Shown here piece by piece: positions 10,315-55,660 of a DNA stretch of 64,000 bases; the first letter of the stretch is position 1, and every line of letters begins with the position of its first letter. Position numbers and translations under genes: made by a program. Below the pieces are notes generated by a model. It had not been told where the DNA came from. It saw only the letters and a program-made list of their open reading frames with translations, and did not search any database. Source of the stretch: Malacoraja senta (taxonomy: Eukaryota); assembly GCA_038087875.1 (NCBI GenBank), contig CM075990.1, forward strand, positions 310,001 through 374,000. Direction: 5' to 3'.

Positions 10315-10681
10315 TGGATATAAGTTATATATATATATATATATATAACTTATATCCATCTATACATATAGATAGAAGAATAGAATAGAATAGATAGATA
10401 GATAGGTAGAAGAATATAGAAGAAGACTAGACTACATGGGAGAGCTGGTCCCCCAACGCAATATTCCAACTCTCCACCAATTCCAATTTTGGTGGACAGT
10501 GGGGGGGGGGGGCTTTCTGGAGTGCTAGTATGGGTACTGTGGGCTGAAGGGACTGGTTAGTATGGACATTGTGGGCCAAATGGATTCTTGGGGTGGCAGC
10601 TCAGTCACTCAAGCCTGATGTGCTGGCAGCTCACTAACGGCTGGGGGGCTAGCAGTTGACTCACGGCTATTCCTTGAAATT

Positions 10682-11080: not shown

Positions 11081-11496
11081 TGAAACCACCATAAAACCAC
11101 TATAAAACCACTCAAAACACCACATAAACACCACATAAACACCACACTCACAGTTCAGTAGACATTCAGTGTGTTCAGTTGATTCACAGCTCAGACAGAG
11201 TCGTGACCTCTCTCTCCCTGATCTTGCAGAGACTGAACCACACCCACACTTACAGGTTTTACAATCCCCCCCCTCCAACTGGAAGGGGCGTGGCCTTCAT
11301 GGCGTGATTGACAGGAGAGAGATTCTCAACAATTATTTAAACACTAATAACACTTTTATTTTTCAATGATGGGAAGAATCCTCTGCACCTGATGAGTGGC
11401 GAGGAACTGAGTAAGATGGACAAAAATCACAGCCATAAGTGGTAGCATTTTATCTAAAATCAATATTCAGTGCAAACAGGAAGTTGTCAAGTTTCC

Positions 11497-22772: not shown

Positions 22773-22802
22773 AATATTTTCATTTTCAAACCATGTTAAG
22801 GG

Positions 22803-22930
22803 CACTCACAGTTGAGTAGACATGTGTTCAGTGTTATTCAGAGCTCAGAGAGATGTGACCCTCTCGTTTCTCCATCTTGCCGAGACTGAGTGAGGCACAC
22901 CACTTCCAGGTTTTATAGTCCCTCCCCACA
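22803..22930 (-). promoter_or_regulatory. Predicted Pol II core promoter and first exon in copy C, facing the 52-bp array
   Basis: TATAAAA 22917-22911, Inr TCAGTCT with A at 22887 (30 nt downstream), CAAGATGG, GTGAGT donor at about 22809. Confidence 0.5.
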
Positions 22931-23689
22931 GCAGGGGCAGCAGAGAGAATGGTGAAATTTTTAAAAACATTAATATCTCTCCGATTTTATATCGATGGGG
23001 AAAATCCTCCAGTCCAGTCCAGCGGAAGGGGGCTCTGAGCGAGCTGGCCGTAAATGATGGCCGTAAGGTGCGGCGTTCTCTCAGAAATCATATTGCAGTG
23101 TCTAAAGCGGTCAAGTAATATAGAAATAGACAGGTAGAATAGTAAGATTAAAAGAGAACTTACCAGTTTGAAGTTTGAACTTTATTTTATGAGGAGTTAC
23201 ATTGGTGATTACGTGAAGAAGACCCATCAGGGCGCATGCGCGTCAATCTTCAAAGCAGCGGTATGAAATCACAGATAACAGAAAATATGAAGTAACATGA
23301 GAACTACCATATGACCTTTATGAGAGAGAGGGTTGGGCGTGGCGGGCATGTAATCATCAACGTAACTCCTCATAAAATAAAGTTCAAACTTCAAACTGGT
23401 AAGTTCTCGTTTAATCTTACTATTTTACTTCGGAGTCACTTTAGTGATTCCGTGAAGAGTTCAAAGCTCTGTGATTTTATGCCGCAGATTCAAATCCCGG
23501 CTTCTCACTGCATTGATTGACTTCGGATGAGAAACAATCAATAATTCGTTAAACATGAAATTGAATATCATGCAGTAACAATTGATTTGAATAATCAAAA
23601 CAAACAGTAACCCCTCTATCCCAGCGGAAACTAAACAGAACTTAATACTGAATTTGCAAACAGCCTCTCCCCGATCGGCAATCGGCCGA

Positions 23690-34300: not shown

Positions 34301-34924
34301 AACTGCAGAATCTCCACTCCCTCTTGAGTGCCTATATTCTTTATAATATGACAGAGCAATTTGCAGCACACTACGCATGATCTAACCAAGGTTTGAACCA
34401 GGTCATCGAGTCACAGAGCAAGCCCTGCGGGCCATGCCAACAAGTTAGCCAACTAAGCTGGTCCCATTTGTCTTGTTTGGTCCAAAACTGTCCTGTCCAT
34501 CTACAAGTGCCTTTTAAATGTTGTAATTGTACCTGCCTCTACTACTTCCTCTGGTACCTCTTTCATGTACCTACCACCCTCTATATGAAAAATTAGCTCC
34601 ACATGTCTCTTTTAAATCTTTCCGCTCTTATCTTAAATCTATGCTCTCTACTTTTTAGGCTCTCTTATCATGTGGAAATGACTATGACTATACACCTTTT
34701 ACCTACCCCATATCTATATTACTAAAAGTAAGATCTTGACCGCTTTTGACTCACTGCGATGTGATTTCCGAGAGAACACCGCCACTTACGGCCGTCATTT
34801 TTGGCCACCTCGTTCAGAGCCCCCCTCCGCCGGAGTGGACTGGAGGATTTCTCCCATCGATGAAAAATCTGAGAGATATTAATGTTTTTTTTTTTAATCA
34901 CCATTCTCTCTGCTGCCCCTGCTG

Positions 34925-35057
34925 GTGGGAGGGGGGAGGGACTATAAAACCCAGAAGTGGTGTGCCTCACTCAGTCTCTGCAAGATGGAGGAAACGAGAG
35001 GGTCACGTCTCTCTGAACTCTGAATAACACTGAAAACATGTCTACTCAACTGTGAGT
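34925..35057 (+). promoter_or_regulatory. Predicted Pol II core promoter and first exon, module 1 of copy D
   Basis: G-rich box, TATAAAA 34943, Inr TCAGTCT with A at 34973, CAAGATGG 34981, GTGAGT 35052. Confidence 0.55.
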
Positions 35058-35106
35058 GCCCTTAATGTGGTTTGAAAATGAAAATATAGTTGGTTTGAAG
35101 TAATAA

Positions 35107-36070
35107 GGCAATGCAAATGGTTGTTTGGGGGGTTTTGGGTTGAAGTAAAAATGCACTGCAAATGGTTGTTTGGGGTTTTTGGGTTGAAGTAAAAAGGCAC
35201 TGCAAATGGTTGTTTGGGGGGTTTTGGGTTGAAGTAAAAAGGCACTGAAAATGTTTGTTTGGGGGTTTTGGGTTGAAGTAAAAAGGCACTGCAAATGGTT
35301 GCTTGCGGGGTTTTGGGTTGAAGTAAAAAGGCACTGCAAATGGTTGTTTGGGGGGTTTTGACTTTGAGTAAAAAGGCACTGCAAATGGTTGTTAGGGGGG
35401 GTTTGTGTTGAATTAAAAAGGCACTGCAAATGGTTGTTTGGGGGCTTTTGGGTTGAAGTAAAACGGCACTGCAAATCGTTGTTTGGGGGGTTTTGGGTTG
35501 AAGTGAAAAAGCACTGCAAATGATTGTTTGGGGGTTTTGGGTTGAAGTGAAAAGGCACTGCAAATGGTTGTTTGGGGGGTTTTGGGTTGAAGTGAAAAGG
35601 CACTACAAATGGTTGTTTGGGGGGGGTTTGGGTTGAACTGAAAAGACACTGCAAATGGTTGTTTGGGGGGTTTTGGGTTAAGTGAAAAGGCACTGCAAAT
35701 GGTTGTTTGGGGGGTTTTGGGTTGAAGTGAAAAGGCACTGCAAATGGTTGTTTGGGGGGTTATGGGTTGAAGTGAAAAGGCACTGCAAATGGTTGGTTGG
35801 GGGGTTTTGGGTTGAAGTGAAAAGGCACTGCAAATGGTTGTTTGGGGGGGTTTGGGTTGAAGTGAAAAGGCACTGCAAATGGTTGTTTGGGGGGTTTGGG
35901 GTTGAAGTGAAAGGGCACTGCAAATGGTTGTTTGGGGCGTTTTGGGTTGAAGAGAAAAGGCACTGCAAATGGTTGTTTGGGGCGTTTAGGGTTGAAGTGA
36001 AAAGGCATTGCAAATGGTTGTTTGGGGCGTTTTTGGTTGAAGTGAAAAGGCACTGCAGATGGTTGTTTGT
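35107..36070. repeat. 45-bp tandem array, about 21 units
   Basis: GGCACTGCAAATGGTTGTTTGGGGGGTTTTGGGTTGAAGTGAAAA. Confidence 0.95.
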
Positions 36071-36249
36071 CTAAACTTGACAACTTCCTGTTTGCACTAT
36101 ATTGATTTTAGATTAAACGCTACCACTTACGGCTGTGATTTTTGGCCATCTAACTCGGTCCCCCTCTGCTCATCAGGTGCAGAGGATTCTTCCCATCAAT
36201 GAAAAATAAAAGTGTTATTAGTGTTTAAAAAATGTTGAGAATCTCTCTC

Positions 36250-36408
36250 CTGCCAATCACGCCATGAAGGCCACACCTTTTCTGGTGGGAGGGGCAGGGA
36301 TTATAAAACCCCGAAGTGTGGGTGTCGCTCAGTCTCTGCAAGATGGGGGAGGGAGAGGTCACGACTTTGAATCAATTGAACACACTGAATGTCTACTGAA
36401 CTGTGAGT
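36250..36408 (+). promoter_or_regulatory. Predicted Pol II promoter and first exon, module 2 of copy D
   Basis: CCAAT 36253, G-rich box, TATAAAA 36302, Inr A at 36331, CAAGATGG, GTGAGT 36403. Confidence 0.55.
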
Positions 36409-36449
36409 GTGGTGTTTTGTGTGGTTTTATGGTGGTTTTATGGTGGTTT

Positions 36450-37075
36450 CACCCTGCTTGAAATGGAATGAAACTGCATTTGAATGTGGTGGCCTTGCAC
36501 CCTGCATGAAATGGTATGAAACTGCATTTGAATGTGGTGTCGTTGCACCCTGCATGAAATGGTATGAAACTGCATTTCAATTTGGTGGTCTTGCACCCTC
36601 CTTGAAATGGTATGAAACTACACTTGAATTTGGTGGCCTTGCACCCTGCTTGAAGTGGTATGAAACTGCACTTGAATTTCGTGGCCTTGCACCCTGCTTG
36701 AAGTGGTTGGAAACTGCACTTGAATTCAGTGGCCTTGCACCCTGCTTGAAGTGGTGGGAAACTGAACCTGAATTTGGTGGCCTTGCTCCCTGCTTGAAGT
36801 GGTATGAAACTGCACTTGAATTTGGTGGGCTTGCACCCTGCTTGAAGTGGTTGGAAACTGCACTTGAATTCGATGGCCTTGCACCCTGCTTGAAGTGGTG
36901 GGAAACTGAATCTGAATTTGGTGGCCTAGCACCCTGCTTGAAGTGGTATGAAACTGCACTTGAATTTGGTGGCCTTGCACCCTGTTCGGAGAGTTAAGAA
37001 ACTGCACTTGAATTTGGTGGCCTTGCACCCTGCTTGAAATGGTAGGAAAATGGAATTGAATTTGGTGGCATTTCA
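36450..37075. repeat. 48-bp tandem array, about 13 units (same family as 10682-11080)
   Basis: GCACCCTGCTTGAAGTGGTATGAAACTGCACTTGAATTTGGTGGCCTT. Confidence 0.95.
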
Positions 37076-37481
37076 AGAAATAGCCGTGTCAACTGCCAGC
37101 CCACCACATGTGAGTGAGCTGCCAGCACATCAGGCTTGAGGGACTGAGCTGCCACCCCAAGAATCCATTTGGCGCACAATGTCTATACTAGCCCTCTGGG
37201 GACCTGTAGTCCCTGCAGCCAACAACACCCATACCAGCGCTCCAGAAAGCACCCCCCCCCCACTGGCCACCAATAATTGAATTGGTGGAGAGGTGGAATA
37301 TTGCATCGGGGGACCAGCCCTCCCGTGTGAACGTGGGACCCAACGGGTCTCACTTAGTCTAGTAATTTTATAAATATCTATCAGGTCACCCTCACCTCCT
37401 GCACTCCAGGGTCAAATGTCCCAGTCTATTCAACCTCCCCTTATAGCTCAAGATCGCCAAATCCAGTAACATCCCTGTGAA

Positions 37482-38452
37482 AATTCAGGAACTGCAGATG
37501 CTGGTTTACATAAAAGACCCAAAGTGCTGCAGTAATGAATTTCAGCATTTCTGGAGAACAATAATAAGTGACATTTTGGGTCAGGACCCTTTTTCAGACA
37601 AATTGTGGTGGAGGGATTGAGAAAGCTGGAAGAGAAGAGGGACAAGACAAAGCTTGGAGAGTGATAGGTGGATTCAGGTGAGGGGGGGTTTTGACAGGCA
37701 GATGTTTGGACAAAGCACGGAGATGAGTAGACAAACGGTGTGAGATAAGGATAGAAACGGTCCAAAGCGTGAAGCCAGAGGAAGGGGAAGTGGAAGGGGA
37801 AGGGGCAGGATTGAAATGGATGTGAGTCCAGAAGGGGCACAGGGAAGAGTGGGCGAGGGGAGAGTGTGAAAGTGGAAAAAAGGGGTTGTTTGCAGGTTGG
37901 TTACCTAAAATTGGGGAATTCAAATTTCATACTGTTAGGTTGGAAGCTACCCGAACAGAAGATGATGTGCTGTTGCTCCATTTTGCGTATGGTCTCACCC
38001 TGGCAATGGGGGATGCCTAGGACAGGAATGTCATTATGGAAATGGGCAGGAGAGTTAAAATGGTTAGGTCACGGGAGATTCAGCATACAGATACAAATCA
38101 ATGGACCCAACCACAAGGGATTCGGCAAAACAATCGGCGAGTCTAGGCTTGGTCTCACCGATATAAAGGAAGCCACTTTGAGAACACCAAATGCAGCAGA
38201 TGAGGTTAGAAGAGGTGCATGTGAACCTCTGTGCTATCTGTAGGGACTGCTGGTTTCCCGAGATTGATGTGAGGTACAGGGACAGGTGTTACATCTCCTG
38301 CTGTTGCAGGGGAAAGTCGTTGGGGAGGGAGGGATTTGTGTGGGAACGGATCAGTGAACCAAGGAGTTGAAGATGAAAAGGTCTCTTCAGAAGGCGGAAA
38401 AGAGTGGGGATGGGTACACGTGACTGGTGGTGGGATTTTGCCCAAAGATTGC
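37482..38452 (-). mobile_element. Penelope-like element 3' fragment with decayed GIY-YIG endonuclease
   Basis: Minus strand gives CTSSNLICCIWCSQSGFLYIGETKPRLAD and IIFCSGSFQPNSMKFEF, followed by the terminal repeat. Confidence 0.85.
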
Positions 38453-38919
38453 TGCATTTGTATTCCACTTGTTTCCCTCCACACTTCAAGTAGTTAGTGA
38501 TTTATTAAAATACACATACTCATATTTTGTTGTGTTGTGCTTCAATGGACAATTATTTGTCTAATTTGTACATTGATTGATTCCCTGCTGTCATTTGTTG
38601 CCTTCCTCCCCAATACTGACCATCATTCCAACAAATAATTTTGTTTCATCTGCAAGTTTAGATGCTCCATTTTGATTCCAGTGTCCAAATAAATGTGATG
38701 AACAACAGTGGTCCAGCACTAATCCTTGCAGAACATGACTGTGGATCTTCTCCCACTATTTATACTTGTTCTTTACCTCCACTCTTCTTTCTATCCTGAA
38801 GCAAACTAGGGATCCATTTTGCTGCTTATTCCCTGACTCTTCTCTGATATTATGGAGCATTTTATCAATGGTCATTATAAATCTGAATAAGTTACCTTTG
38901 CTTACCTACACAGTTTACT

Positions 38920-39610
38920 TATGGTCATTGAGTTATATAGTGTGGAAACAGGTCCTTCAGCCCAACTTGCCCAATATGTCCCAACAACACGAGTCCCACC
39001 TGCCCGCGTTTGGTCCATATCCCTCCAAACCTGTCCGATCCATTTAAAAAAAAACTGTTTCTTAAATGTAGGGATAGTCCCAGCCTCAACTACCCTCCCT
39101 GGCAGCTCATTCCATATGCCCACCACCCTTTTGTGTGAAAAAGTTACAACTCAGATTCCTATTAAATCTTTTCCCTTTCAGCTTAAACCTATGTCCTCTG
39201 GTTCTTGTTTCACCTACTCTGGGCAAGAGACTCTGTGCATCTACCCAATCTATTCCTCTCATGATTTTATACACCTCTATAAGATCATCCCTCATCCTCC
39301 TGAACTCCAAGGAATAGAGTTCCAGCCTATTCAACCTCTCCCTATAGCTCAGACCCTCTAGTCCTGGCAATATCGTTGTAAATCTTCTCTGCACCCTTTC
39401 CACTTGACAACATCTTTCCTCTAGCATGGTGCTCAGAACTGAACACAATACTCTAAATGCCTTATACAACTACTCTAAACACCTAATACCGACGCCTTAT
39501 ACAACTGCAAAATGACATCCCACCTTCTATACTCAACACTCTGACCGATGAAGGCCAATGTGCCGAAAGCCTTTTTGACCACCCAATGTACCTGTGACTT
39601 CACCTTCAAT
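38920..39610 (-). mobile_element. CR1 LINE 3' fragment
   Basis: ERVQRRFT..LPGLEGLSYRERL..L.LYSLE.RR.R.DLIEVYKI. Confidence 0.9.
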
Positions 39611-39825
39611 AAGAACTTCTCAATAAGATTTGGTAAACAAGGTTTCCCATTTTAAAATCCGTATAGTATTATATCTGATTCTGATGAGTTTTTTTTTATT
39701 TTCTCGTTAGCATTTGTTTCTACAAATTTTTACCCATTAATAATAAAATGATTGGTTGATAATTCCAAGAATATATTTTTTGCCCCTTCTAAAACATAGA
39801 ATATTATGTTAGCTATCTCTTTCAT

Positions 39826-40072
39826 TTAGTTTTTAGTTTAGAGATACAGCGTGGAAACAGGCCCTTCGGCCCACCGGGTCCGCACTGACCAGCGATCCCT
39901 GCACATTAACACTATCCTACACCACTAGGGACAATTTTTACATTTTTACAGGTCCCGGGAAGAAGGGACAAACTCCATACAGACAGCACCCGTAGTCGGG
40001 ATCGAACCTGGGTCTCCGGCGTTGCATTCGCTGTAAGGCAGCAACTCTACCGCTGCGCCATCGTGACCGCCC
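39826..40072 (-). mobile_element. tRNA-derived HE1/V-SINE-type SINE
   Basis: A box tggcgcagcgg, B box ggttcgatccc, CR1-like tail ending in (TAAAC)n. Confidence 0.85.
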
Positions 40073-40555
40073 TAGACTTGGATAAACACGGTCATCAAAC
40101 AAATGAACAAGTTTGTGTCCCAATCCTTCTGTTGTTGCTTATTTGCGATGAGAGCTAGAATTCTGATGGGAATTCTGTCTAATACCAGATGATAAGTGGC
40201 CGTTCTAAGGAATGCACTAGCACAAATGTACCCCTGAGAGGATGGACATTATCAAGGTGCTAAGGAAACAGAAATATCAGCAGACTTTTTTCTCTTATCA
40301 GTCAAAATCCTTCTCTCTGTTGTGGCAACACACTTGCCCAAGATAACAGAAGATTTTATTTACACAATATGAGTGATCATATTTACCAAATATAAAGGAT
40401 AGAAGCTTGAGTTGGCCATGGAGCCTTACAGTGTGGAAAGAGGCCCTTCCACATATTATGTCCATGCCGACCATCACCGCTGACTGGAGCACGCAACAAA
40501 AGCTTTTCACTGTACTTCTATACATGTGACAATAAACTAAACTGAAACTGAAACT

Positions 40556-41112
40556 GAACAGTGTGGAACCACCAAGTCCGTGCCGACCAACGATCACCCA
40601 TACACTAGTTCTGTCCCACACATTGTGAATCGTCCCCAGTGCATAGGATAGAACTGCCACACTTTCCCACAAAGACACACAGGCCAGCAGCCCAGCCAGC
40701 CACAAATTGAGCGATCCTCCGCCGCACCAAAGCGCCCGAGACCCGAAACCCACCCCGCGACCGGCCACAATCCCCCCATCTCCTCCCTCTGGGAACACCG
40801 GCACAACAGCTCCACCCCACGTGGGCAATACCAGCGTGCAGGATGTAACCAGAGCACCCGGAGCAACTGGAGGAAACCCATGTGGCTACAGGGAGCAGAG
40901 GCCAGGATCGATCCCTGTCCTCTGCAGCATGAGGCAGTGGCTCCATCAGCGACCCACAGGAGTCAAATAAACCACAAACCTGCACGTCTCTGCATCGCTC
41001 AATCCGAATACCTGGAGGAAACCCACGCTGCCACCTGGAGCACCCGAGGTCAGGATCAAACTCGGGTCTCTGGCACCGTAAGGAAGCAACTCTACCGCAG
41101 CACCACTGTGCC
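40556..41112 (-). mobile_element. SINE with about 340 bp of extra internal sequence
   Basis: tRNA-like head at 41040-41112, tail at 40556-40620, non-matching GC-rich middle. Confidence 0.6.
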
Positions 41113-41229
41113 ATTCCAAGTGTACTTTACTGTTTATTGTGTAGCGTATGTTTATCGGCTATTTTCCCAATAGTACTCTACATATTAACCCACTTATTCG
41201 GTTGTAGTGGACAATCGGCAATAGTGGAC

Positions 41230-41273
41230 ACCATATCTCCCTGTGTGGTCCGTTATTGCGAGGGTTGACTGTA
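41230..41273 (-). mobile_element. Single Tc1-mariner/pogo-type terminus
   Basis: Minus strand TA|CAGTCAACCCTCGCAATAACGGACC; partner TIR not found. Confidence 0.4.
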
Positions 41274-41589
41274 TACTCATTATATTTGTCAGTACTTGGC
41301 CTGCAGCCTTTATCATTAACCCTTCATTTTCTTCATATCCATGTGACTATCTAAAACCATCTGAAATGCCTCTGCTACCCCCATAGCATCACATTCCAGG
41401 CACCAACCACTCTCTGTGTAAAACAAAAAACTTGCCCCAGCATCTCCTTTAATTGTCCCTCTGACCTTAATCATTCGTTAATACTTCTCTCATTGGTGCA
41501 CAAGCTCTTCGGATCCAATTTTATCCATTTGGAGTACAACAAAAATAATTTTAAATCTTATTTCCGTGTCAGGTCATCAAAGTGAATGC

Positions 41590-42012
41590 AAGGTGGTGCA
41601 ACGGTAGAGTTGCTACCGTACAGCGCCAGAGCCCCTGGTCCCTGGTTTGATTTTGACCACGGGTGCTGTCTGTACATTTCGTACGTTCTCCCTGTGACCT
41701 GCGTGGGTTTTCTCAGAGATCTTCAGTTTTCTCCCACACTCCAAAGATATACAGGTTTGTAGGTTCTGAAGAAGGGTTTCGGCCCGAAACGTTGCCTATT
41801 TCCTTCGCTCCATAGATGCTGCTGCACCCGCTGAGTTTCTCCAGCATTTTTGTGTACCTCAGGTTTGTAGGTTCATTGGCTTGGTATAAATGTAAGTTGT
41901 CCTTGGTGTGTAGATAGTGTTAGTGTGCAGGGATTACTGGTCGGTGCGGACTCGGTGGGCTGAAGGGCCTGTTTCCGCGCTGTATCTCTAAACTAAACTA
42001 AACGAAACTAAT
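41590..42012 (+). mobile_element. HE1/V-SINE-type SINE with a nested Penelope terminal fragment (41766-41860)
   Basis: SINE head, core and tail; aggtttgtaggttc duplicated either side of the insert. Confidence 0.85.
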
Positions 42013-43149
42013 CAGCCAATTATGTAAAGGCCAGTTAGGTGTAACATGAATTGGATAGTTAATTAAGTGTTCTGATGTAGGCTTGAGAGTCTGTTATGTA
42101 GTTCTTCAAAAACACACCTAGTCACACCCATTTTACACTGGACATCAATTCTGGAGATGCTCTGTAATCTCGCACTAGGAATCAAGATTGTGACAGAGTT
42201 CTGAAACGTTTTTTTATACAGACAAGCTCTTCCATTTAGTTTAGTTTGGAGATTTACTTTAGTTTAGAGATAGAGCATGGAAACAGGCCCTTCGAGTCCG
42301 CGCCGACCAGCGATCCCCGAACACTAACACACTCCAGGGACAACTTACAATTCTATCAAAGCCAATTAACCTACAAACCTATACGTCTTTGGAGTGTGGG
42401 AGAAAACCTGAGATTCCGGAGAAAACCCAGCAACTGCAGTTTCTTCCGACACACCGGGCATTATTTAATGTTATCCTCAGTTAACGACAAAAACACACAT
42501 AAAACTCGCACCCTGTGGAGCTGCTGAGCATAAACAGAGGTCAATTTTGATTAATTTCAAAGCAATTGCAAAATACTGAAATGAACGCAACTGAGAGGAG
42601 ATTAGAAGCATGCATTGGTGTTCAGAGCACTTAGATACTCTGCTGTCACCCTGCACTTTATTTCAATTGTAACCTCTCTTTGCACTCACAAACACCAGTT
42701 ATTCATGCAGGGAAGATATGTTTATCTGGTCAACTCAGTGCATCTTAAATACCTAATGATTCCATTATATGAATAAATAAAATGTTTACTTATTTGCACC
42801 ACATGTCATTTTAGGAATGGAGGTTCAAAAATGTACAGTATAGCATTTGTTTGTATTTATTTATGGGGCTGGGCATCATGGGCAAGGCTAGCATTTATTG
42901 CTCACATGTATGAAGGAACTGCAGATGCTGGTTTAAACCGAAGATAGACGCAAAATGCTAGAGTAACTCTGCGGGACACGCAGCATCTCTGGAGAGAAGG
43001 AATGGGTGGCGTTTCAGGGTCGAGACCTTTCTTCAGATCTCTTGTTATAATTGAGAAGTATCACTGCAGACCTTCTCGCGTAGGGTTGTGTAGGAAGTTC
43101 CCCAAAATGGAGGAATTTGGATTTGCTGGGTTTGCAAGAAGCGAGATTG

Positions 43150-43330
43150 TTACTCACACCCCCACCAGCATTAATGGTTCCAAAGTGGGGATAGTGGAGG
43201 GATGGGCTAAGTTCCTAGACATAAATATCACCAAAAATTTGTGCTGGAACACGCACATTGAAGCTATGGCCAAGAAAGCATGCCGAAGCCTCAATGTTTT
43301 CAGAAGAAATAGAAAGTTTGGTATGTCTTG
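43150..43330 (+). mobile_element. Rex1-like LINE fragment
   Basis: KFL.INIT.NL.W..H.....KKA...L..FRR.RKFGMS. Confidence 0.65.
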
Positions 43331-43779
43331 GACGTGCTGCCGAGAACAAAGCGTGGGGGGATGGGGGGGCATCGAGAAACCTTAGGGGGCCCAGCGTGGG
43401 GGAACCACCAAGAGCATGGGGGACTAAATGGAATACTTTATAACTTTGTCAGCACCCTATATGTGACAACTCTTTGCAAAAAAAAGAATCTCACTGTGAC
43501 ATGTCACATGTGACAATAACGTATCAATCATTCATTCATACTCTGGCACCATCCTTCTTCTCGCTTATCCAGGGTTGATATTGTAAGGTGCTTTACTGCT
43601 GATGCATACCCACTTACTATTTCAATGTTGGAAAAATGGTATCTAGATTGTTCAGCGCAGGATCCCACAAAAACTCATTTCCAAGATAATATGCTCTTGA
43701 GGTGATATGGGGGAATAACCATTATCCAAATCATGATTTTTTTCTAAACAGTGTATTGAATGTTGAGAATTGAGTATAG

Positions 43780-44240
43780 GGTATAGAGTATTGAGTGTAG
43801 ACATTGGGAGGAATTTTGCAGTTGTACAAGACGTTGGTGAGACCACATTTAGAATATTGTGTTCAGTTCTGGGCACCATGTTATAGGAATGATGTTGTCA
43901 AGCTGGAAAGGGCACTGAGATGATTTAAGAGGATGTTGCCAGGACTAGAGGGTGTGAGCTATAGGGAGAGATTGAGTAGGCTGAGACATTATTCCCTGGA
44001 ATGCAGGAGGATGAGGTGTGATCTTATAGAGGTGTATAAAATCATGAGAGGAATAGATCGGGTAGATGCACAGAGTCTCTTGCCTAGAGTAGTTGAATCA
44101 AGGACCAGAGGACATACAGTAGGTTTAAGATGAAGGGATAAAGATTTAATAGGAGGGGTACATTTTTCACACAAAGGGTGGTGGGTGTATGGAACAAGCT
44201 GCTAGAGGCTGGTGTTTCCACACTGCATAACTATGACTCT
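43780..44240 (+). mobile_element. CR1 LINE 3' fragment
   Basis: [27 protein letters not shown]. Confidence 0.9.
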
Positions 44241-44619
44241 AGTGCAATGGCAACTTTCATTTGAGAGGGGACACAGGATATTCACAAATCACCTCACCTG
44301 CACTATAGCCTTTACCTTGCATTCCCTTACCTTTTCATGTGTCTATGCACCGTAAATGGCTCAATTGTATTCATGTATTGTCTTTCTGCTGACTGGATAG
44401 CACACAACAAAAGCTTTTCACTGTACCTCGGTACACATGACAACAAACGAAACTGTAACTGAAACTGGTAAACTTTTTCCACAGATGGTTCCATCTACAA
44501 AAATGAGGGTGTGCTGGGATTAACTGCTACCCTGCTGTAACGGGGTAATCCTCGTGGTTATGTGGCATTGTACAAAAACTATGAACTATGAAATACACAG
44601 AAAATTGGAAATCTGATGT

Positions 44620-45702
44620 TAGAAACATAGAAACATAGAAATTAGGTGCAGGAGTAGGCCATTCGGCCCTTCGAGCCTGCACCGCCATTCAATATGATCA
44701 TGGCTGATCATCCAACTCAGTATCCCGTACCTGCCTTCTCTCCATACCCTCTGATCCCTTTAGCCACAAGGGCCACATCTAACTCCCTCTTAAATATAGC
44801 CAATGAACTGGCCTCGACTACCCTCTGTGGCAGAGAGTTCCAGAGATTCACCACTCTCTGTGTGAAAAAAGTTCTTCTCATCTCGGTTTTAAAGGATTTC
44901 CCCCTTATCCTTAAGCTGTGACCCCTTGTCCTGGACTTCCCCAACATCGGGAGCAATCTTCCTGCATCTAGCCTGTCCAACCCCTTAAGAATTTTGTAAG
45001 TTTCTATAAGATCCCCTCTCAATCTCCTAAATTCTAGAGAGTATAAACCAAGTCTATCCAGTCTTTCTTCATAAGACATTCCTGACATCCCAGGAATCCG
45101 TCTGGTGAACCTTCTCTGCACTCCCTCTATGGCAATAATGTCCTTCCTCAGATTTGGAGACCAAAACTGTACGCAATACTCCAGGTGTGGTCTCACTAAG
45201 ACCCTGTACAACTGCAGTAGAACCTCCCTGCTCCTATACTCAAATCCTTTTGCTATGAAAGCTAACATACCATTCGCTTTCTTCACTGCCTGCTGCACCT
45301 GCATGCCTACTTTCAATGACTGGTGTACCATGACACCCAGGTCTCGCTGCATCTCCCCTTTTCCTAGTCGGCCACCATTTAGATAATAGTCTGCTTTCCT
45401 GTTTTTGCCACCAAAATGGATAACCTCACATTTATCCACATTATACTGCATCTGCCAAACATTTGCCCACTCACCCAGCCTATCCAAGTCACCTTGCAGT
45501 CTCCTAGCATCCTCCTCACAGCTAACACTGCCCCCCAGCTTAGTGTCATCTGCAAACTTGGAGATATTGCCTTCAATTCCCTCATCCAGATCATTAATAT
45601 ATATTGTAAATAGCTGGGGTCCCAGCACTGAGCCTTGCGGCACCCCACTAGTCACTGCCTGCCATTGTGAAAAGGACCCGTTTACTCCTACTCTTTGCTT
45701 CC
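44620..45702 (-). mobile_element. Young 5'-truncated CR1 LINE with uninterrupted ORF2 C-terminus
   Basis: Open ORF 44717-45700 with [25 protein letters not shown]; (TTTCTATG)n tail at 44620-44642. Confidence 0.95.
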
Positions 45703-46239
45703 ATGTTGTGGCCATTTTGGAGGGGAACTATGATGTGGCCATCACGGAGACTTGGTTGCAAGGAGGACAGGACGGACAGTTCAACATTTCACGGTTTTGA
45801 TGTTTCAGATGTGATAGAGAGGGAGGTAAAAGAGGTGGAGGAATTGCTTTACTCATCAGAAAGAATGTCATGGCAGCGTTCAGAGAGGATGTGGGTTCGT
45901 CTTTTGAGGTGACAATGGTAGAGCTAAAAAATAAGAACATAGAACAGACTCGATGGGCTGCTCCTATGTCTTATGAACATATGAACTTGAGGGGTTGAGC
46001 TATAGGAAGGGGGTTGGGCAGGGTATGACTTTATTCCTTGGAGTGCAGGAACCTGAGGGGTGATCTGATAATGATGTTTAATCATCAGGGGAATGCAAAG
46101 AGTCTTTTACCCAGAGTAGGGGAATCAAGAACCAGAGAACATAGGGTTAAGGTGAGATGGGGAAAGGTTAATAGCAAACCTGAGGGGCAACGTTTTCACT
46201 TTAAGTTTGTTAGATATATGGAATGAGCTGCCAGTGTTG

Positions 46240-47705
46240 TGTTTCTCCCGTTCCCCACCATTCTTTTCTTATCCCCCTTCCACCCAGGTAGAATGCGGAA
46301 AGAGTTCCCTGGTCCTTAACTTTCACCCCACCAGCGTCCACATCCAACACAACATTGTTCAACATTTTCACAAACTTCAACATGATCCCACCGCTAGTCA
46401 CATCTCCCCTTCCCTGCCCTTATTGTTTTCCGCAGGAATCTCTCATTGCCTTTGTTTACTCAGCCCTCTTCATTCATCTCTCTCTCTCCACAGGCACTAT
46501 CACCTTCAATCACTGGAGATGCAAACCTGACCCTTCACCTCTTCCCTTACCTTCATTCAGAGACCTAAACAGCCATTCTAGGTGAGACAGGCACACTTAA
46601 TGTCATAAGGTCATAAGTGATAGGAGCAGAATCAGGCCATTTTGGCCCATCAATACTACTCTGCCGTTCAATCATGGCTGATCCAATGTTCCTTCCTAAC
46701 CCCATTCTCCTGCCTTCTCCCCATAATCCCTGACACCCGTACTAATCAAGAATCAATCTATCTCTGTCTTAAAAATGTTCATTGACTTCGCCTCCACTAC
46801 CTTCCGTGGCAAGGAATTCCACAGATTCAACACCCTCTGACTCACTTCTCGGTGAGACCATGTGCAGCCTAGGTGACCACGTCACTGAACACCAGGACCA
46901 GCTGGGACTGCCAGTTGCAACTCATTTCAGTTTTCCTTTCCATTCCCACTCTGACCTCTCTATCGTCAACCACTTCTATTTCTAGTGTGGGGTCACACAC
47001 AAATCAAATGATCAAAACCTCACATTCCACTTCAGTAGCCTATGAACCAATGGCATGAACATTGAAAGCTTCAATTTAAGGTAAACCTTCAACCAAGCCT
47101 TCTTTCTCATCTCACCAGGTCCTCTCACACATGTTTCTTTCCAACCGCCCTGTCCCGTGTTACCCAGTTCCTTTCCCTAATCCACTTCCACCTTCTGCTC
47201 ATCACACATCAATTTTTCTTCGGGCCCCACATTCATCCACACCCCTTGTTCATATCTAACCACCATCACTCCCTTTGGTTCTTCCCCCACCTCCCTATTT
47301 GATGAGATCCTAGCATCTGCATTCTTTTGCCTTTAGCCATTTATCATGTCCAGCCTTTATGATTATCTCCACCCTTTTCCCTACTTGAATCATCTGCCAG
47401 TCAAATCTCCTTACCTAGATAGACACAACATGCTGGAGTAACAGCGGGACAGGCAGCTTCTCTGGATAGAGGGAATGGGTGACATTTCGGGTCGAGACCT
47501 GGATCTCTTTGGATGTCTCATTTGCACTCATTACCCTTGCTTATCTCTGTGTCTCCCTATCCCCTGACTCTCAGTCTGAAGAATGGTCTTGAGCCAAAAC
47601 ATCACCCATTCCTTCTCTCCAGAGATGCTGCCTGTCCCGCTGAGTTACTCCAGCTTTTTGTGTCTATCTTCGGTGTAAATCAGCATCTGCAGTTCTGTCC
47701 TTCAC
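46240..47705 (+). mobile_element. Penelope-like element 3' fragment with nested CR1 tail (about 46600-46845)
   Basis: LVLNFHPTSVHIQ, GET....GD...EH, LPVATHF remnants; palindromic terminal repeat 47418-47705. Confidence 0.75.
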
Positions 47706-48861
47706 ATCTGGATCTCTGTGCTCTTTTGCCTTATGTTGTTCATATTCTAGTACAGAATACTCAAACATAATCCGCAATGCATCGGATGTTGACTACCGAG
47801 CTGCTCAGCTGATAAACTGAAGTGTTAAGCTCCACAAGCCTGTTAGCTTAAGGGGAAAGTAAAATATTGAATGCAGAATGTTTTGTAAAATGCAATTAAT
47901 GGTGATTACGTGGAAAATTGAAAGGAAATAGTTATGGCAAGCTAATCCCAGAGGTGAACTAAACCATGTACTTGAGAAATTGTTTTGACACAAGTACTTC
48001 TGCAGATGAAAGTGAAAACTGTTTCCACTCCAACTTCCTTGTTTACCGAGAGAAAGAAACAAAACCCTTGCTGTGAGAATCACGCAACAAATAAAGAACT
48101 TCAAAGTAAAGAAAACCGATTATGTCGGTGCCATTATGAAAACTCCGGAGATTCAAGCAAGCAATGCTAAAATTGAAGGTGTGTAGGAAGGAATTGCAGA
48201 TGCTGGTTTAAACTGAAGATAAGCACAAAGTGCTGGAATAACCTTGTGGGACAGGCAACATCTCTGGATACAAGGAATGGGTGACTTTTCGGGCAAGACC
48301 ATTCGTTTTCACACCTTACCCACCCTTATCTCTGTCTTCCTCTCCCCTGACTCTCAGTCTGAAGAAGGGTCTCTACCCGAAACTTCACCCATTCTATCCA
48401 TCCAGAGATGCTGCCTGTCTCTCTGAGTTACTTCAGTTATGTGTAGGATGGAACTGAAGTAACTGGGCATTTTGTGTCTGTCTATCCACTGGAAGCTTGA
48501 ACAGATTATCTTTATTCCAGACATATTGCAGACTTGGGGCTCGATGCCAGACTGAAGTAATTTGGTTTTCCCATTTGAACCAGAAATAGCTGATCTACTC
48601 TCAGGTTGTCCAAGTGTAGAGTGAACTCCGGTTTCTTCACTCCACACACACCACCTCATCTGCCAGGCATTTACAGCAATCCCACTTTCGTGTCAGGTTT
48701 AAGCAACAGCTCTGACCTGCATTTCATATCTCTACATGTCACTCTATCCCATTCTCAAAATCCCCGCATTAGTTGATCATCCAAACAGCTTTGTAAACAG
48801 TGTAGTCAGGTGGCAGAACACACCTCCCCCGTCAGAGATGTTCCCTTTATCCTGTCCACAC

Positions 48862-49266
48862 CAAAGATCCTATAGCAAGCAAGATAGATCACTCGACGAA
48901 AAAGTCATAGTATGGTCATGGGCAGATTCATGGGTAATTTTCGGCCCCATTTCCGTAACCGGCTTCCGTCTCTGCACCAAAGATCCCATTGCGGAGCAAA
49001 GATAACTAGTGCAGAGACGGAAGCCGGTTACGGAAACATCCTCATAAAAATAAAAGTTCTTTGGTAAAAATCTTCTCCTCATTTTCAGAATTATAATTTA
49101 TTAACACAAACTGTTCCCCCGCAACGTTGATTACACTGCAAGTCAAGTCGGGTCGGGTCACTGAAATGGATGAAAAACAGGCCCACGTTCCGCTCCATTG
49201 CGTACTACACGTCAGCCCATTGCATTTAGCAGGAGTGGTCTATCTTGCTCCGCTATAGGATCTTTG
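48862..49266. mobile_element. MITE with 8-bp TSD (P-like or hAT-like)
   Basis: TIR caaagatcctatagc..gcaagataga.cactc and its complement; GTCCACAC at 48854-48861 and 49267-49274. Confidence 0.88.
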
Positions 49267-50534
49267 GTCCACACCCTCCATCCCAATGAAAAGGCTTTGG
49301 TCTGGAATGTTAACACTTTGATAGGGAGGTAGTTTAGTTTATTGTCACATGCCCTGAGGTACAGCGAAAAGCCTTTGCTGCATGCTATCCAGGAAGCAGA
49401 AAGACAATACATGATTACAATTGAGCCATTTACAGTGTATAGATACATGATAATGAAATAGCATTTAGTGCAAGGTAAAGTCATCAAAGTCAGACCAAGG
49501 ATAGTCCGAGGGTCACCAAAGAGTTAGATAGTTGTTCAGCACTGCTCTCTGGTTGTGGTTGCTGGACCTGTTGAGATTTTCCAGCATGCCTTGTCATACC
49601 GTCACGTTTGCTTAAATTAAATCAAACTTAAAGCACGTTTCATTGTTATTTCCTTTCCCCGATAACAAAGTGCGAGGAAGGAATCCAGCAAAATGAGCTT
49701 GCCGGAGGAACAGATGGTTTTACAGTGAAGAGAGTTACGGGGGGTGTATTGATTTCTGAAGCAATTGAGTGGTTTAGCAGGAAGATAACACCTCGAGCAT
49801 TCTCATGTGCAGAATGAATTGTGCAATGAAAACTTGGGAAGAACTGAGCCAAGAAGATGCAATCAACAGTATCCAATTATGAATGACAAGTTTTGACATT
49901 TCCTTCAATGATAATGGTCAGCTCTCTCCCCCGACCCTCAATATTACTGAATCGCTCACTTTTAATATTTCAACCACTATCTTTGATTCCGAAGTTTGAG
50001 TCAACCAGGCCAATCAAACTGCAGGCAGGTCATAGCTTCTGCACTCAATATCTCTTTATCGCCACAGGGCACTAGTCAAGAATGTGTCAGAGAATTCTTC
50101 ACTTACCTGGATGTATACATCAACATACAAGAACCTTGCTCTATTCAAGTCAAATCAACCCACTTGTTTAACGCTGGTAGTTGCTTGAACTGAAGTTTCC
50201 ACCCACAACATACTTTGACTGTTATTATGACTTGCTATTGAGGGAGTGCAGCATAGGTTTATGAGGTTAATTCCTGGGACAGCTGGACTGTCATATGTTG
50301 AAAGAATGGAGCGACTGGGCTTAGCTATATTATTAAAAGTCTGATCTTGACCGCTTTTGGCCCACTGTGCTGTGATTTCCGAGAGAACACCGCCACCTAT
50401 GGCCGTCGTTTTTGGCCACCTCGCTCAGAGATCCCCTCCGCCTTCCTGGACCAGAGGATTTTTCTCATCGTTGAAAAATCAGAGATATATTAATGTTTTT
50501 TTTTTAATTGCCATTCTCTTCGCTGCCCCCGCTG

Positions 50535-50661
50535 GCGGCAGGGGGGAGGGACTATAAATCCCGGAAGTGTCGTGCCTCAGTCTCTGCCAGCCCCAGGAAG
50601 TGAGAGGGTCTGCTCTCTGAGCTGCAAATAACACTGAACGCATGTCTAATCCACGGTGAGT
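50535..50661 (+). promoter_or_regulatory. Predicted Pol II promoter and first exon in copy E
   Basis: G-rich box, TATAAAT 50553, ETS-type CCGGAAGT 50561, Inr A at 50579, ACG|GTGAGT 50656. Confidence 0.5.
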
Positions 50662-50674
50662 CCCCCTCGATGTG

Positions 50675-51358
50675 GCTGTAAAGTGGCTGCTGCCAAATGT
50701 TTGCCTTTTTTTTAAAGATTGTTTTCAGAAAATGGATTGGTTGTCAAGTGGCTGCTGCCAAATTGTTTGCCTCGCCTTTTAAAAAGTTTGTGTTCACAAA
50801 ATGAATTTTGGTTGTCAAGTGGCTGCTGCCAAATTGTTTGCCTCGCCTTTTAAAAAGTTTGTGTTCACAAAATGAATTTTGGTTGTCAAGTGGCTGCTGC
50901 CAAATTGTTTGCCTGGCCTTGGTTTTTTTTAAGTTTTTTGTTCACAAATGGATTGGTTGTAAAGTGGCTGCTGCCAAATGGTTAGCCTTGCCTTGGTTTT
51001 TAAAAAGTTTGTGTTCACAAAATGGATTGGTTGTAAAGTGGCTGCTGCCAAATTGTTTGCCTCACCTTTTAAAAAGTTTGTGTTCAGAAAATGGATTGGT
51101 TGTAAAGTGGCTGCTGCCAAATTGTTTGCCTTGCATTTTAAAAAGTTTGTGTTCACAAAATGGATTGGTTGTAAAGTCACTGCTGCCAAATTGTTTGCCT
51201 TGCCATGTAAAAAGTTTGTGTTCACAAAATGGATTGGTTGTAAAGTGGCTGCTGCCAAGTTGTTTGCCTTGCCTTGGTTTTAAAAAGTTTGTGTTCACAA
51301 AATGGATTGATTGTAAAGTGGCTGCTGCAAAATTGTTTGCCTTGCCTTAGTTTTTAAA
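50675..51358. repeat. 69-74-bp tandem array, about 10 units
   Basis: GTTGTAAAGTGGCTGCTGCCAAATTGTTTGCC...TTTTAAAAAGTTTGTGTTCACAAAATGGATTG. Confidence 0.95.
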
Positions 51359-53289
51359 ATCGTTGCAACAGTTTTCAAATGGATAAAGCGTGAATAAACA
51401 TTTTATTCGATCAGGAATGTGTTTAACCCCGCCTCAAAAAAATGTTTTGCACAAATTCTTCAGTGAGTCTGGAGGATTGAGATTTACAAACAAATTACAA
51501 CCGCTCAATCTCTCTATATTAAAATTGTCTCTTTTTGTTATCAACAGCAAATAGCCATCAAGAGCAAGTGAGCAGCAGAACACAACAAGAGACACAACAA
51601 GAAAGAACTTAATAATTATCATCTTTAACATTTAATTTGTTCTTATATTTTAAGAGTAATTCACAATTTAAACTTTAATAAACCCTTTTTACACTTTTCA
51701 TGCCTTTGTGTTCTTCATCACAATGGGAACCTAATAGGCAGGAATGGCTGCTCTGTGGGAGAGCCACTAAGAGTGCATGGGGGGAGGGTTGTGGGGAGAT
51801 GGACTGAATGCGTGGGGGGTGGGGAATGGCAAGGAGCAGAATGGGGGGGGGAATGAAGGGAGGGAGGGGTGACAGGAATGAACTGCCACCACACCAGACA
51901 TGAATGACTGCACTGCCAGACTGCCAGCCCACCAGCCCTGAGTAAGTGAACTGCCAGCCATCCAGCCATGACTCACTGAACTGCCAGCCCAATAATCCAT
52001 TCAGTCCACCCTCTCCTCCTTCTCTCTCACAAAGCCTCTCACCTGTTTTCGGCACAATTTCTGGCAGTTTCTCAGCTGCCAGCCTGCCAGGTCTGAGTGA
52101 CTGTACTGCCAGGCCTCAGTAACTGAACTGCCAGTCCAAGAATCCCTTTTGGCCCACAATGTCCGTACTAGCCCTCTTGAAACCAGACCCTTTGGCCCAC
52201 AACACCCATACTAGCACAACAGAAAGCCCCCACTGGCCAGCAATATTGGAATTGGTGGTGAGGTGGAATATTGCGTTGTGTGACCAGCCCTCCCGTGTGA
52301 TGCTGGGACCCAACGGGTCCCACAGTCTAGTATACACTGGAATTTAGAAGGATGAGTGGCGATCTTATTGAAACATAAAGATTATTAAGGGATTGGACAC
52401 ACTAGAAGCAAGAAACATGTTCCTGATGTTGGCGTAGTGCAGAACCAGTGGCCATAGTTTAAGAATAGGTGTAGGCCATTTAGAACAGAGATGAGGTAAA
52501 TGTTTTCACCCAGAGAGTTGTGAATTGTGGAATTCTCTGCTTCAGAAGGTAGTGGAGGCAATTTCTCTGGATGCTTACAAGAGAGAGTTAGATAGATTTA
52601 AAGATAGCAGAGTCAAGGGGAGAAGGCACGAACTGGGCACTGATTGTGGATGATCAGCCATGATCACAGTGAATGGCGGTGCTGGCTCAAAGGGCCAAAT
52701 GGCCTACTCCTGCACCTATTGTCTGAAATGCTGGAGTAACTCAACGGGACAGACAGCATCTCTGGATAGAAGGAATGGGTGCATTCGGATAGAGACCTTT
52801 CTTCAGACAGAGATTCTCAGTCAGAAAGGACTTGACCTGAAACATCACCCATTCCTTCTATTCGGAGATGCTGCCTGTCCCGCTGAGTTACTCCACCACT
52901 TTGTATCTATCTTTGGTGTAAACCAGCATCTCAGTTCCTTCCTAAACATGCTATGACTGCAGTATTTACTGTCGGGAGCACATATGCCATTATTAAGCTT
53001 TCTTCTGCTTCACAAGCTCGACCACAGGAAGGGCAAGTTGAGCAACTCCTTGGTATTATCATTACCTTCAGATTCTTTTCTCCCAGACTATGATCCACAG
53101 CATTGTGTAGCGTGAGAGCTTCTATCAATATTGACTGGGACTTGCACAATGCTAAGGGTTTAGAAGGGGGCATAATTTGTTATATGTATCAAAGAGGGTT
53201 TCCTGAAACAGTATGTGGATAGTCCCAACCTGAGAAGGGAGCATACCAGACCTTGTGTTGGGTAAACAAGCCTTGCTGGCTTGCAAAGT

Positions 53290-55660
53290 GTTGGGTCCCA
53301 GCATCACACGGGAGGGCAGGTCACCCAACGCATTATTCCACCTATCCACCAATTCCAATATTGCTGGCCAGTGGTGGGGGGGGGGGGGGGGGAGGGGGGA
53401 CTTTCTGTTGCGCTAGTATGGGTGTTGTGGGCTAAAGTTACTGGTTTCCAGAGGGTTAGTATGGACATTGTGGGCCAAATAGATTCTTGGGCTGGCAGCT
53501 CAGTCACTGAGGCCAGGCAGCTCAGTCACTGAGGCCTGGCAGTACAGTCACTCAGACCTGGCAGGCTAGCAGCTGAGAAAATGCCAGAAATTCAGCCCAA
53601 AACAGGTGACAGACTGTGGGAGAGGGTGGACTGAATGGATTAATGGGCTGGCAGTTCAGTCACTTACGGCTGGTGGGCTGGCAGTGCAGTCACTCACACC
53701 TGGTATGCTGGCAGTTCACTCAGTCACCCATCCTCCCTTCACCTCCCCCCAATCTGCTCCTTGCCATTCCCCTCCCCCCCCACGCATTGTGCATCTACCC
53801 GCCAACCTCCCCCCATGCACTCTTAGTGGCTCTCCCACAGAGCAGCCATTTCTGCCCATTAGGTTCCCATTGTGATGAAGAACACACAGGCATCAAAAGT
53901 GTAAAAAAGGATTTATTAAAGTTTAAATGTGAATGACTCTTAAAATATGACAATTTAAATGTTAAAGATGAGAATTATTAAGTTATTTCTTGTTGTGTCT
54001 CTTGTTGTGTTCTGCTGCTCACTGCCTCTTGATGACTATTTCCTGTTGATAAAAAGATAAAATTTTAATATAGATAGATTAGGGCGGTTAAATTTTAAGA
54101 AAGAATGACGTCATCGGCGCCATCTTGCAACTAAGCGAAATCAAAGAATGAGCGGCAATTTTGAAACTAAATACAGTCCTGAACTAATAAAATGTTTATT
54201 CACGCTTTATCCATCCAAAAACTGTTGCAAGCAAGCCCTTAAATGCCAAGCCAATTGGGCAAACACTTTGCAAGCCAACAAAACACACTTTCTGAAAGCC
54301 CTTTAAAAAGCCAAAAATCCAATTGGGCAAACACTTTGTAAGCCAACAAAACACATTTTCTGAAAGCCCCTTTGAAAAGCCCAAAAAGCCAAATGGGCAA
54401 ACACTTTGCAAGCCAACAAAACACGTTTTCTGAGAGCCCTTTAATAGCCAAGCCAATTGGGCAAAACACTTTGCAAGCCAACAAAACACATTTTCTGAAA
54501 GCCCTTTAAAAAGCCAAAACGCCAATTGGGCAAACACTTTGCAAGCCAAAAAAACACGTTTATTGAGAGCCCTTTAATAGCCAAGCCAATTGGGCAAACA
54601 CTTTGCAAGCCAACAAAACACATTTTCTGAAAGCCCTTTGAAAAGCCAAAAAGCCAATTGGGCAAACACTTTGCAAGCCAACAAAACACGTTTTCTGAGA
54701 GCCCTTTAATAGCCAAGCCAATTGGGCAAACACTTTGCAAGCCAACAAAACACATTTTCTGAAAGCCCTTTACAAAGCCAAAACGGCAATTGGGCAAACA
54801 CTTTGCAAGCCAAAAAAACACGTTTATTGAGAGCCCTTTAATAGCCAAGCCAATTGGGCAAACACTTTGCAAGCCAACAAAACACATTTTCTGAAAGCCC
54901 TTTGAAAAGCCAAAAAGCCAATTGGGCAAACACTTTGCAAGCCAACAAAACATGTTTTCTGAGAGCCCTTTAATAGCCAAGCCAATTGGGCAAACACTTT
55001 GCAAGCCAACAAAACACGTTTTCTTAAAGCTCTATAAAAATCCAAAAAGCCATTGGGCATACACTTTGCAAGCCAACAACACACATTTTCTGAAAGCCCT
55101 TTAAAAAGCCAAAAAGCCAAAAAGCCAATTGGGCAAACACTTTGCAAGCCAACAAAACACATTGTCTGAAAGCCCTTTGAAAAGCCAAAAACGAATTGGG
55201 CAAACACTTTGCAAGCCAACAAAACACGTTTTCTGAGAGCCCTTGAATAGCCAAGCCAATTGGGCAAACACTTTGCAAGCCAACAAAACACATTTTGTGA
55301 AAGCCCTTTAAAAAGCCAAAAATCCAATTGGGCCAAACACTTGCAAGCCAATTGGGCAAACACTTTGCAAGCCAACAAAACACATTTTCTGAACGCCCTT
55401 AAAAAAGCCAAAAATGCTAATTGGGCAAACACTTTGCTAGCCAACAAAAACACATTTTCTGAAAGCCCTTTGAAAAGACAAAAAGCCAATTGGGCAAACA
55501 CTTCGCAAGCAGAGAGAATGGACGAATTTTTCTTAAACATTATTATCTCTCTGATTTTTCATCGATGTGAAAAATCCTCCAGTCCAGCCCGGCGGAGGGG
55601 GGGCTCTGAGCGAGGTGGCCAAATATGATGGCCGTAAGTCGCGGCATTCTCTCGGAAATC
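53290..55660 (-). mobile_element. Non-autonomous Helitron-like element, copy F (3' tip broken; 5' end runs into the gap)
   Basis: 53290-54230 is colinear with the reverse complement of copy E 51350-52314; 55510-55660 matches the 5' module of C, D and E. Confidence 0.85.
54230..55510. repeat. 64/68-bp tandem array, about 19 units
   Basis: CAATTGGGCAAACACTTTGCAAGCCAACAAAACAC..TTTCTGA.AGCCCTTT. Confidence 0.95.

Follow-up and report, generated by a model that had tools for sequence, protein, structure and literature searches.

Probable turnover of tandem-repeat units in a fixed slot of a non-autonomous Helitron family of the skate Malacoraja senta

The window analysed here is a stretch of 64 kb from Malacoraja senta (positions 310001-374000 of contig CM075990.1, our G000:C14, in a 1.94-Gb assembly to which all genome-wide counts refer). 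Between 3880 and 55660 it holds four near-complete copies of a Helitron, named C, D, E and F, together with two 3′ fragments (Table 1). Each of the four copies belongs to a different subfamily, and all subfamilies are part of a single canonical, non-autonomous Helitron family. The initial annotation, which already saw one Helitron family here, had placed the four copies at 34713..55660, where D, E and F indeed lie, C being located outside this interval. We consider it probable that the family derives from an element encoding Rep and helicase (RepHel), that it carries a native tandem array whose units turn over rapidly, and that its subfamilies exchange their 5′ modules.

In copy D, the 5′ module (module A) is followed by a first array (slot 1), a second module B and a second array (slot 2) of 48-bp units. 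D 36123-36409 aligns to D 34782-35058 at 73-79% in self-BLAST; module B is thus a diverged duplicate of the 5′ module, and consequently the 48-bp array occupies the same slot in a second cassette. The D 5′ module matches that of C at 87%, of E at 82% and of F at 90% (F being cut by the N gap at 55661), while the middle modules pair C with D at 86% and E with F at 81%, in agreement with the shared 5′ module and the flank pairings initially described. Tandem Repeats Finder (TRF) likewise returned the unit sizes expected for C (52 bp), D (45 bp), E (69-74 bp) and F (64/68 bp). A common anchor precedes the array by 12-34 bp in C, D and E; the F copy of the window lacks the final ~170 bp of its 5′ module, and in other F-type copies the anchor lies 15-24 bp before the array. 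The arrays had been called internally homogeneous, and this is roughly true, except that C slot 1 consists of 219 units of 47-56 bp with a mean pairwise identity of 83%, that the unit variant of D slot 1 changes after unit 8-9, and that E mixes units of 69, 71 and 74 bp. In F, TRF detected 16.5 repeats at 54248-55351, the array extending to 55510. Copy C has a 13-nt deletion near its 5′ end and has lost the 3′ hairpin, retaining the terminal CTAG and the following T. The 3′ end of copy F breaks off within the hairpin and is without CTAG; at 53255-53300 it stops in the hairpin loop, and a short stretch in inverted orientation follows that resembles a unit of the F array.

Table 1. Helitron copies and their parts in the window (window positions)
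Feature	Position	Strand	Description
Copy C	10427..23124	-	two-cassette non-autonomous Helitron, 12.7 kb
C slot-1 array	11495..22770	-	52-bp unit x216.6 (TRF)
C slot-2 array	10682..11082	-	48-bp unit x8.4 (TRF)
Copy D	34713..37362	+	complete two-cassette non-autonomous Helitron; A before, T after
D 5′ module A	34713..35058	+	includes 5′ terminus
D slot-1 array	35090..36069	+	44/45-bp unit x21.8 (TRF: 45-bp)
D module B	36073..36410	+	diverged duplicate of module A
D slot-2 array	36450..37069	+	48-bp unit x12.9 (TRF)
D 3′ terminal module	37070..37362	+	hairpin 37333-37353, 9 nt before CTAG end
Copy E	50324..52330	+	single-cassette deletion derivative of RepHel parent, within another repeat
E slot array	50673..51348	+	69-74-bp unit x9.6 (TRF 69-bp); diverged dimer of ~32-35-bp unit
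E junction	51427..51873	+	short piece immediately 5′ of parent start codon fused to post-helicase-stop sequence
Copy F	53290..55660	-	single-cassette derivative; 5′ end lost in N gap at 55661
F slot array	54248..55510	-	alternating 64/68-bp units, 132-bp higher-order unit
Family 3′-region fragment	3880..4314	-	self-BLAST
Family 3′-region fragment	8456..8833	-	self-BLAST

The definition of canonical Helitrons follows PMC4067079 (for this and the other sources cited, statements refer to the portions of text available). A canonical Helitron starts with TC, ends with CTRR, bears a palindrome of 16-20 nt about 11 nt before its 3′ end and inserts between A and T without target duplication (PMC4067079). 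For comparison with the window, copies across the genome were sampled as 60 loci by similarity, 30 by motif and 30 by position on one chromosome. D begins with TC at 34713 and C at 23124, the first base of E being mutated, and A precedes the 5′ TC in 29 of 30 positional copies. All 43 recovered 3′ ends read CTAG, followed by T in 42 cases, with a search pattern that also admitted CTAA, CCAG and CCAA; CTAG terminates C, D and E. The subterminal hairpin of D measures 21 nt, and E has a similar one 6 nt from its end. The joined flanks of E match uninterrupted copies of a host repeat, with no duplication of the target; the uninterrupted paralogous sites have G where the left flank of E has A. A Rep/helicase partner with matching ends exists as well, in the form of a frameshifted full-length parent described below. 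Thus, the canonical ends confirm the Helitron assignment.

On the Helentron side, a comparison of the first 60 with the last 90 nt of D and E revealed none of the subterminal inverted repeats (subTIRs) of 11-15 bp, the longest inverted match being 8 nt with 1 mismatch allowed. The target is A^T and not TT. The parent-type frame ends right after the helicase, with no endonuclease behind it, and continues into the E/F 3′ region; moreover, Pfam detected no endonuclease in the C-terminal 973 aa of a sister RepHel protein or in P0002. Membership in the Helentron / HINE / DINE-1 class was ruled out on these three grounds.

Across the genome, 3,569 exact matches to the 17-nt 5′ terminus were counted, against 0 for a control. 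The presence of this terminus in 16 of the 30 motif-selected copies suggests a copy number of at least about 6,700. Copy density in the window, which sits 310-374 kb from the contig start, is several times the genome average implied by this terminus count. Head-to-tail stacks are frequent, in which a copy directly adjoins the CTAG terminus of a further Helitron (L222:3420-3430; L013, L066, L078, L079, L220/L221).

A search with the 3′ region of F matched copies with helicase remnants immediately upstream. These copies consist, in order, of the 5′ module, an array of 62-73-bp units, a spacer, the helicase remnant, the E/F 3′ region, a 30-bp array and the 3′ end. Among 20 further RepHel neighbourhoods, 4 were 93-95% identical to the helicase remnant and continued into the E/F 3′ region. 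One of these 4, reached through a PF14214 search, is a full-length but frameshifted parent of 7.9 kb (G000:C1:146744429-146752309; L222+L174) in which 5′ module, array, broken RepHel frame, E/F 3′ region and 3′ end succeed one another. The RepHel partner with the same ends that the initial annotation had proposed to look for was therefore found, full-length and broken; none of 28 RepHel neighbourhoods (of 112 matches) contained an intact copy of this parent. The parent array consists of 6.7 units of 65 bp and occupies the same slot, about 1.5 kb 5′ of the start codon. The autonomous element thus possesses the array natively, and E and F derive from this parent by internal deletion. A family of intact RepHel proteins of 1,766 aa was rejected as the direct parent, sharing ~27 nt of 3′ end and having a different 5′ end; it is a sister family, which might act in trans. 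The 30-bp array near the 3′ end varies from about 2 to 20 copies (L162, L226, L174) and constitutes a third expandable site.

The sampled loci provided 164 candidate 5′ ends. The slot anchor was recognised in 125; 39 candidates were dropped for lack of it, many of them internal duplicates, and 10 more as duplicates. This left 115 distinct copies, 105 of them with an array. Hand-made rules sorted the 105 arrays into 15 unit classes of 31-74 bp, several of which differ by a small indel alone; 8 arrays are C-type, 16 D-type, 8 E-type and 11 F-type. Among the 30 positional copies, 13 carry a 31-bp unit absent from the window, 8 D-like units and 3 units of 38-41 bp; a 44-bp C-like unit, an E unit and an F unit occur once each, and 3 copies have no array. 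Every unit of the window recurs in dispersed copies, so the units are subfamily traits. Most of the units initially reported as four different satellites are related by descent, and each characterises a dispersed subfamily instead of a single copy. In L200, L219 and L079, 46-bp arrays run partly or wholly in the orientation opposite to that of the element.

The parent unit is related to those of E and F, and these two to each other (z scores of 8.5 for parent-E, 4.0 for parent-F and 3.8 for E-F). Each of the three can be divided into halves of 32-36 bp that are themselves related (p 0.008-0.034 between halves). The E and F units are diverged dimers of a ~32-bp unit. Units of 43/44 bp match C at 73-83% and D at 68-74%, the 44-bp unit of L207 having 83% identity to C and 68% to D; a chain of intermediates joins C, D and the units of 38-44 bp. 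The link between the E/F and C/D units is visible by eye, without statistical support. A rarer 31-bp unit, which accompanies a D-type 5′ module, is similar to each of the two halves of the parent unit (p 0.003 and 0.013). The 48-bp unit has no significant likeness to any slot-1 unit (z up to 2.2), and run-shuffled controls did not bear out a single origin of all units.

Slot-1 units diverge much faster than the sequences around them. Between the C and D consensus sequences, the 5′ module differs by 1.2% and module B, on the 3′ side, by 4.3-5.1%, against slot-1 units of 60% identity (19.5% substitutions, z 2.0). The 48-bp slot-2 units differ at 1 of 48 sites, as expected from the conservation first noticed in this array. 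Similarly, the 38/41-bp and 31-bp classes differ by 1.2% in the 5′ module and share 60% identity in the unit (z 1.1), the corresponding values for E and F being 4.4% and 61%. Among the classes with two cassettes, divergence amounts to 0.7-9% in module B and to 0-3 of 48 sites in the 48-bp unit, and the last 90 bp of module A are 0-6% apart across classes. Equal divergence of monomers and flanks, which the initial annotation had named as the outcome contrary to fast turnover, was therefore not observed; the idea of fast turnover stands, with the correction that flank similarity comes in part from recombinant 5′ modules.

Within subfamilies, units lie 2-5.5% from the array consensus and 5′ modules 3-7% from the class consensus. 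This similarity indicates that arrays were near-uniform when copied and aged afterwards, from which we infer that most homogenisation took place in source elements. Divergence of copy flanks and of arrays showed no correlation in five classes, the samples being small. Slot-2 units are exactly 48 bp long in 92% of 344 cases, and the per-array share of the modal length in slot 1 is 0.35 for C and 0.64 for D.

Most of the arrays are minisatellites, with rare expansions to satellite length: the median is 6.9 units and 1 of 103 untruncated arrays exceeds 30. Satellite length, which the satellite-generating cassette proposed at first would imply, is thus reached by some arrays and not by the majority. 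Two C-type arrays, the sole satellite-like ones observed, are long, the 11.3-kb array of copy C and another of ~18 kb between intact flanks, the middle of which was sampled by exact matches alone; both are inside elements. C slot 1 holds block duplications of 0.77-4 kb at 99%+ identity, and such blocks over units otherwise 83% alike would mean that this array grew late. Two unit types follow each other block-wise in L064 (44/46 then 48), L076 (35 then 49), L150 (43, 36, 43), L164 (F then E) and D. The 5′ modules have a mosaic structure: two kinds of 5′ half and two kinds of 3′ half are joined in every one of the four possible ways, each represented by a subfamily. When E, D48, F and D44 are compared, the sites that join E with D48 (6) all fall at 18-122 and those that join E with F (15) at 181-338 (permutation p about 1e-5), a result that the individual copies confirm. 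In the tree of 5′ modules (76 copies; 29 classified copies left out), unit classes are clustered and not monophyletic.

How should the contrast between unit and flank be understood? Ordinary subfamily ageing, with equal rates in both, describes the situation inside subfamilies, where the distances given above imply that copies age evenly after insertion and where D44, D46 and D48 are separated by small indels only; between subfamilies, units differ by 17-25% plus length changes and flanks by 1-5%, which refutes it there and leaves it hardly credible as a general account. The units could also have diverged slowly in old lineages, their apparent speed being an artefact of flank replacement by module swapping. 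The mosaic 5′ modules speak for this, as does the unit nearest to C (44-bp, 83%), which follows a 5′ module 14% away from that of C. We nevertheless find it unlikely, because the flanks touching the array are close too (the last 90 bp of module A at 0-6%, module B at 0.7-9%) where unit identity is 50-60%, and because the linked 48-bp array is nearly invariant. Alternatively, unrelated repeats may have been captured into the slot on several occasions, with a minimum of one event each for the C/D lineage and the 31-bp unit. A filler-DNA or cut-and-replace model has been proposed for group 2 of Cg_HINE, whose related flanks enclose unrelated repeats (PMC7492417), and neither the C/D units nor the common 31-bp unit shows significant similarity to those of E, F and the parent. 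Repeated capture is still quite improbable in view of the slot array of the parent, whose lead-in resembles that of C/D, of the rarer 31-bp unit matching both parent halves from within a D-type 5′ module, of the intermediates linking C, D and the 38-44-bp units, and of the position of both long C-type arrays checked, within full elements. Capture of a foreign repeat is possible for one or two steps.

Several points weigh against a native array with fast unit turnover as the general explanation. The sampling by similarity (60), motif (30) and position (30) is biased. Homology of the E/F and C/D lineages was not demonstrated, whole-unit z being about -1 to 1.5 and 2 of 24 half-unit comparisons with four C/D-lineage units reaching p < 0.01, uncorrected, and the commonest 31-bp unit matches neither lineage. 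The 3′ flanks of E and F are 16-20% apart from copy to copy, which narrows the rate gap for this pair. Slippage does not account for all of slot 1, given the stable unit length of the 31-bp class (modal share 0.92). Finally, the 99%+ block duplications of C could be assembly artefacts, and a sweep and a crossover fit the two-type arrays equally well.

Under the preferred reading of a native, rapidly changing array, unit turnover likely proceeds by slippage and local duplication in source elements, and 5′ modules are likely exchanged by recombination or template switching. A new unit would arise in a source element and spread through its array, and rolling-circle transposition would then copy it to many sites. 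For the C/D type to arise, the module-plus-array cassette may have been duplicated and the coding region lost. Once dispersed, copies would mostly age neutrally, a few expanding in place to 10-18 kb. D module A contains a TATA-like motif at 34943, an initiator-like motif at ~34970 and a splice-donor-like motif at ~35052, all of putative function; together with an acceptor-like motif before the parent ATG, they may form a promoter and an intron. The slot would lie in this predicted intron of the 5′ untranslated region of the RepHel transcript, which may explain its tolerance of change. Slot 1 may be more labile than slot 2 since its units have slippery A and G runs.

About 6% of a raw RNA run, two sets of contigs presumably derived from RNA and a further contig set were mapped to an F-type copy. 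Over its exon-like part, where DNA depth peaks as well, first mates favour one orientation by about 3-5 to 1; if the library follows the common strand convention, this would be sense transcription. Reads on this copy continue upstream of the TATA motif, and they contained no transcription start or donor-to-acceptor joint within the fraction of the RNA run that was read.

We tentatively raise, as a somewhat doubtful extension, that the array itself is the crossover site, template switches in a promoter-proximal, intron-borne array making units and subfamilies in one step. If so, the family would offer a graded series from a ~32-bp ancestral unit through >10 derived units to nascent satellites of 10-18 kb, with the invariant second array as a built-in control in the same genome, and whether central repeats are captured or intrinsic would become decidable within one family. 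This question is left open in the available text of PMC7492417.

The closest parallels are found among Helentrons. Cg_HINE of Crassostrea gigas are, like the skate family, non-autonomous rolling-circle elements with central tandem repeats in short dispersed arrays; group 2 combines related flanks with unrelated repeats and some members carry two arrays, as here (PMC7492417). They differ in having subTIRs and units of 140-180 bp, against 31-74 bp in the canonical skate Helitron, for which, unlike for Cg_HINE as presented in that text, a parent and intermediates between units are identified. DINE-1 of Drosophila also shows conserved blocks around a variable, non-homologous central repeat, unrelated between species and with three subtypes within D. 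willistoni; it is a Helentron derivative with subTIRs and a TT target, whose turnover is mostly between species (PMC2374699, PMC4067079). DINE central repeats are listed as a source of satellites in the review PMC9659126. In the skate family, unlike DINE-1, many unit types coexist in one genome. Dias et al. (2015) is reportedly the primary paper on DINE central repeats as a satellite source.

Among vertebrates, Heli2Xen / Helitron-N2_XT and the zebrafish Helitron-N1_DR consist largely of minisatellite, and the autonomous copy has arrays too (PMC12001565). Heli2Xen belongs to the Helitron2 group and has one 166-bp unit at both ends, unlike the skate family, and the text available for it describes no turnover of unit types in a fixed slot (PMC12001565). 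Helibat of bats resembles the skate family in its chimeric subfamilies, copies with a promoter, first exon and first intron reaching high copy number, but its promoters are captured host sequence (PMC4224331); the words 'satellite' and 'tandem' are absent from the main text of that paper. Helitron minisatellites of C. elegans are likewise remodelled over time, a process ascribed to transcription-coupled mutation after insertion (bioRxiv 10.64898/2026.08.08.743475). We found no description of the present family in skates, sharks or other cartilaginous fishes in a literature that included few subscription papers and no supplements.

Consequently, the notion of a new kind of cassette, or of a first vertebrate case, had to be given up, the pattern being published for DINE-1 and Cg_HINE and minisatellite Helitrons for Xenopus and zebrafish. 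Unit swapping between conserved flanks is known; what the skate family adds is a canonical Helitron and a vertebrate host, with many units per genome, a parent and intermediates. The pattern is thereby extended to a canonical Helitron in a cartilaginous fish, and no new mechanism or host function is revealed. With parent, intermediates, two-type arrays, in-place expansions, and a stable beside a labile array in one assembly, birth and turnover of units become datable against the flanks.

Further observations concern individual copies and the sister family. An F-type copy contains an unrelated insert of ~5 kb with a 54-bp repeat (L161:114-7098, oriented), and this repeat recurs in a 31-bp-type copy (L161, L202). 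The sister RepHel family (L138/L139 in G000:C3619, L136/L137, L140-L151) has long open frames of up to 1,766 aa. Its proteins (L136-L151) are 95-100% identical, their N-terminus contains a 69-bp coding repeat and the copies are often clustered among CT-rich repeats; this family has likely been active recently. The sister protein (L138:7082-10000) is 94% identical to a protein of Leucoraja erinacea and 72% to one of Rhinoraja longicauda. Its next relative after skates is found in the snail Physella acuta, at 63% against a background of ~43%, a possible lead for horizontal transfer.

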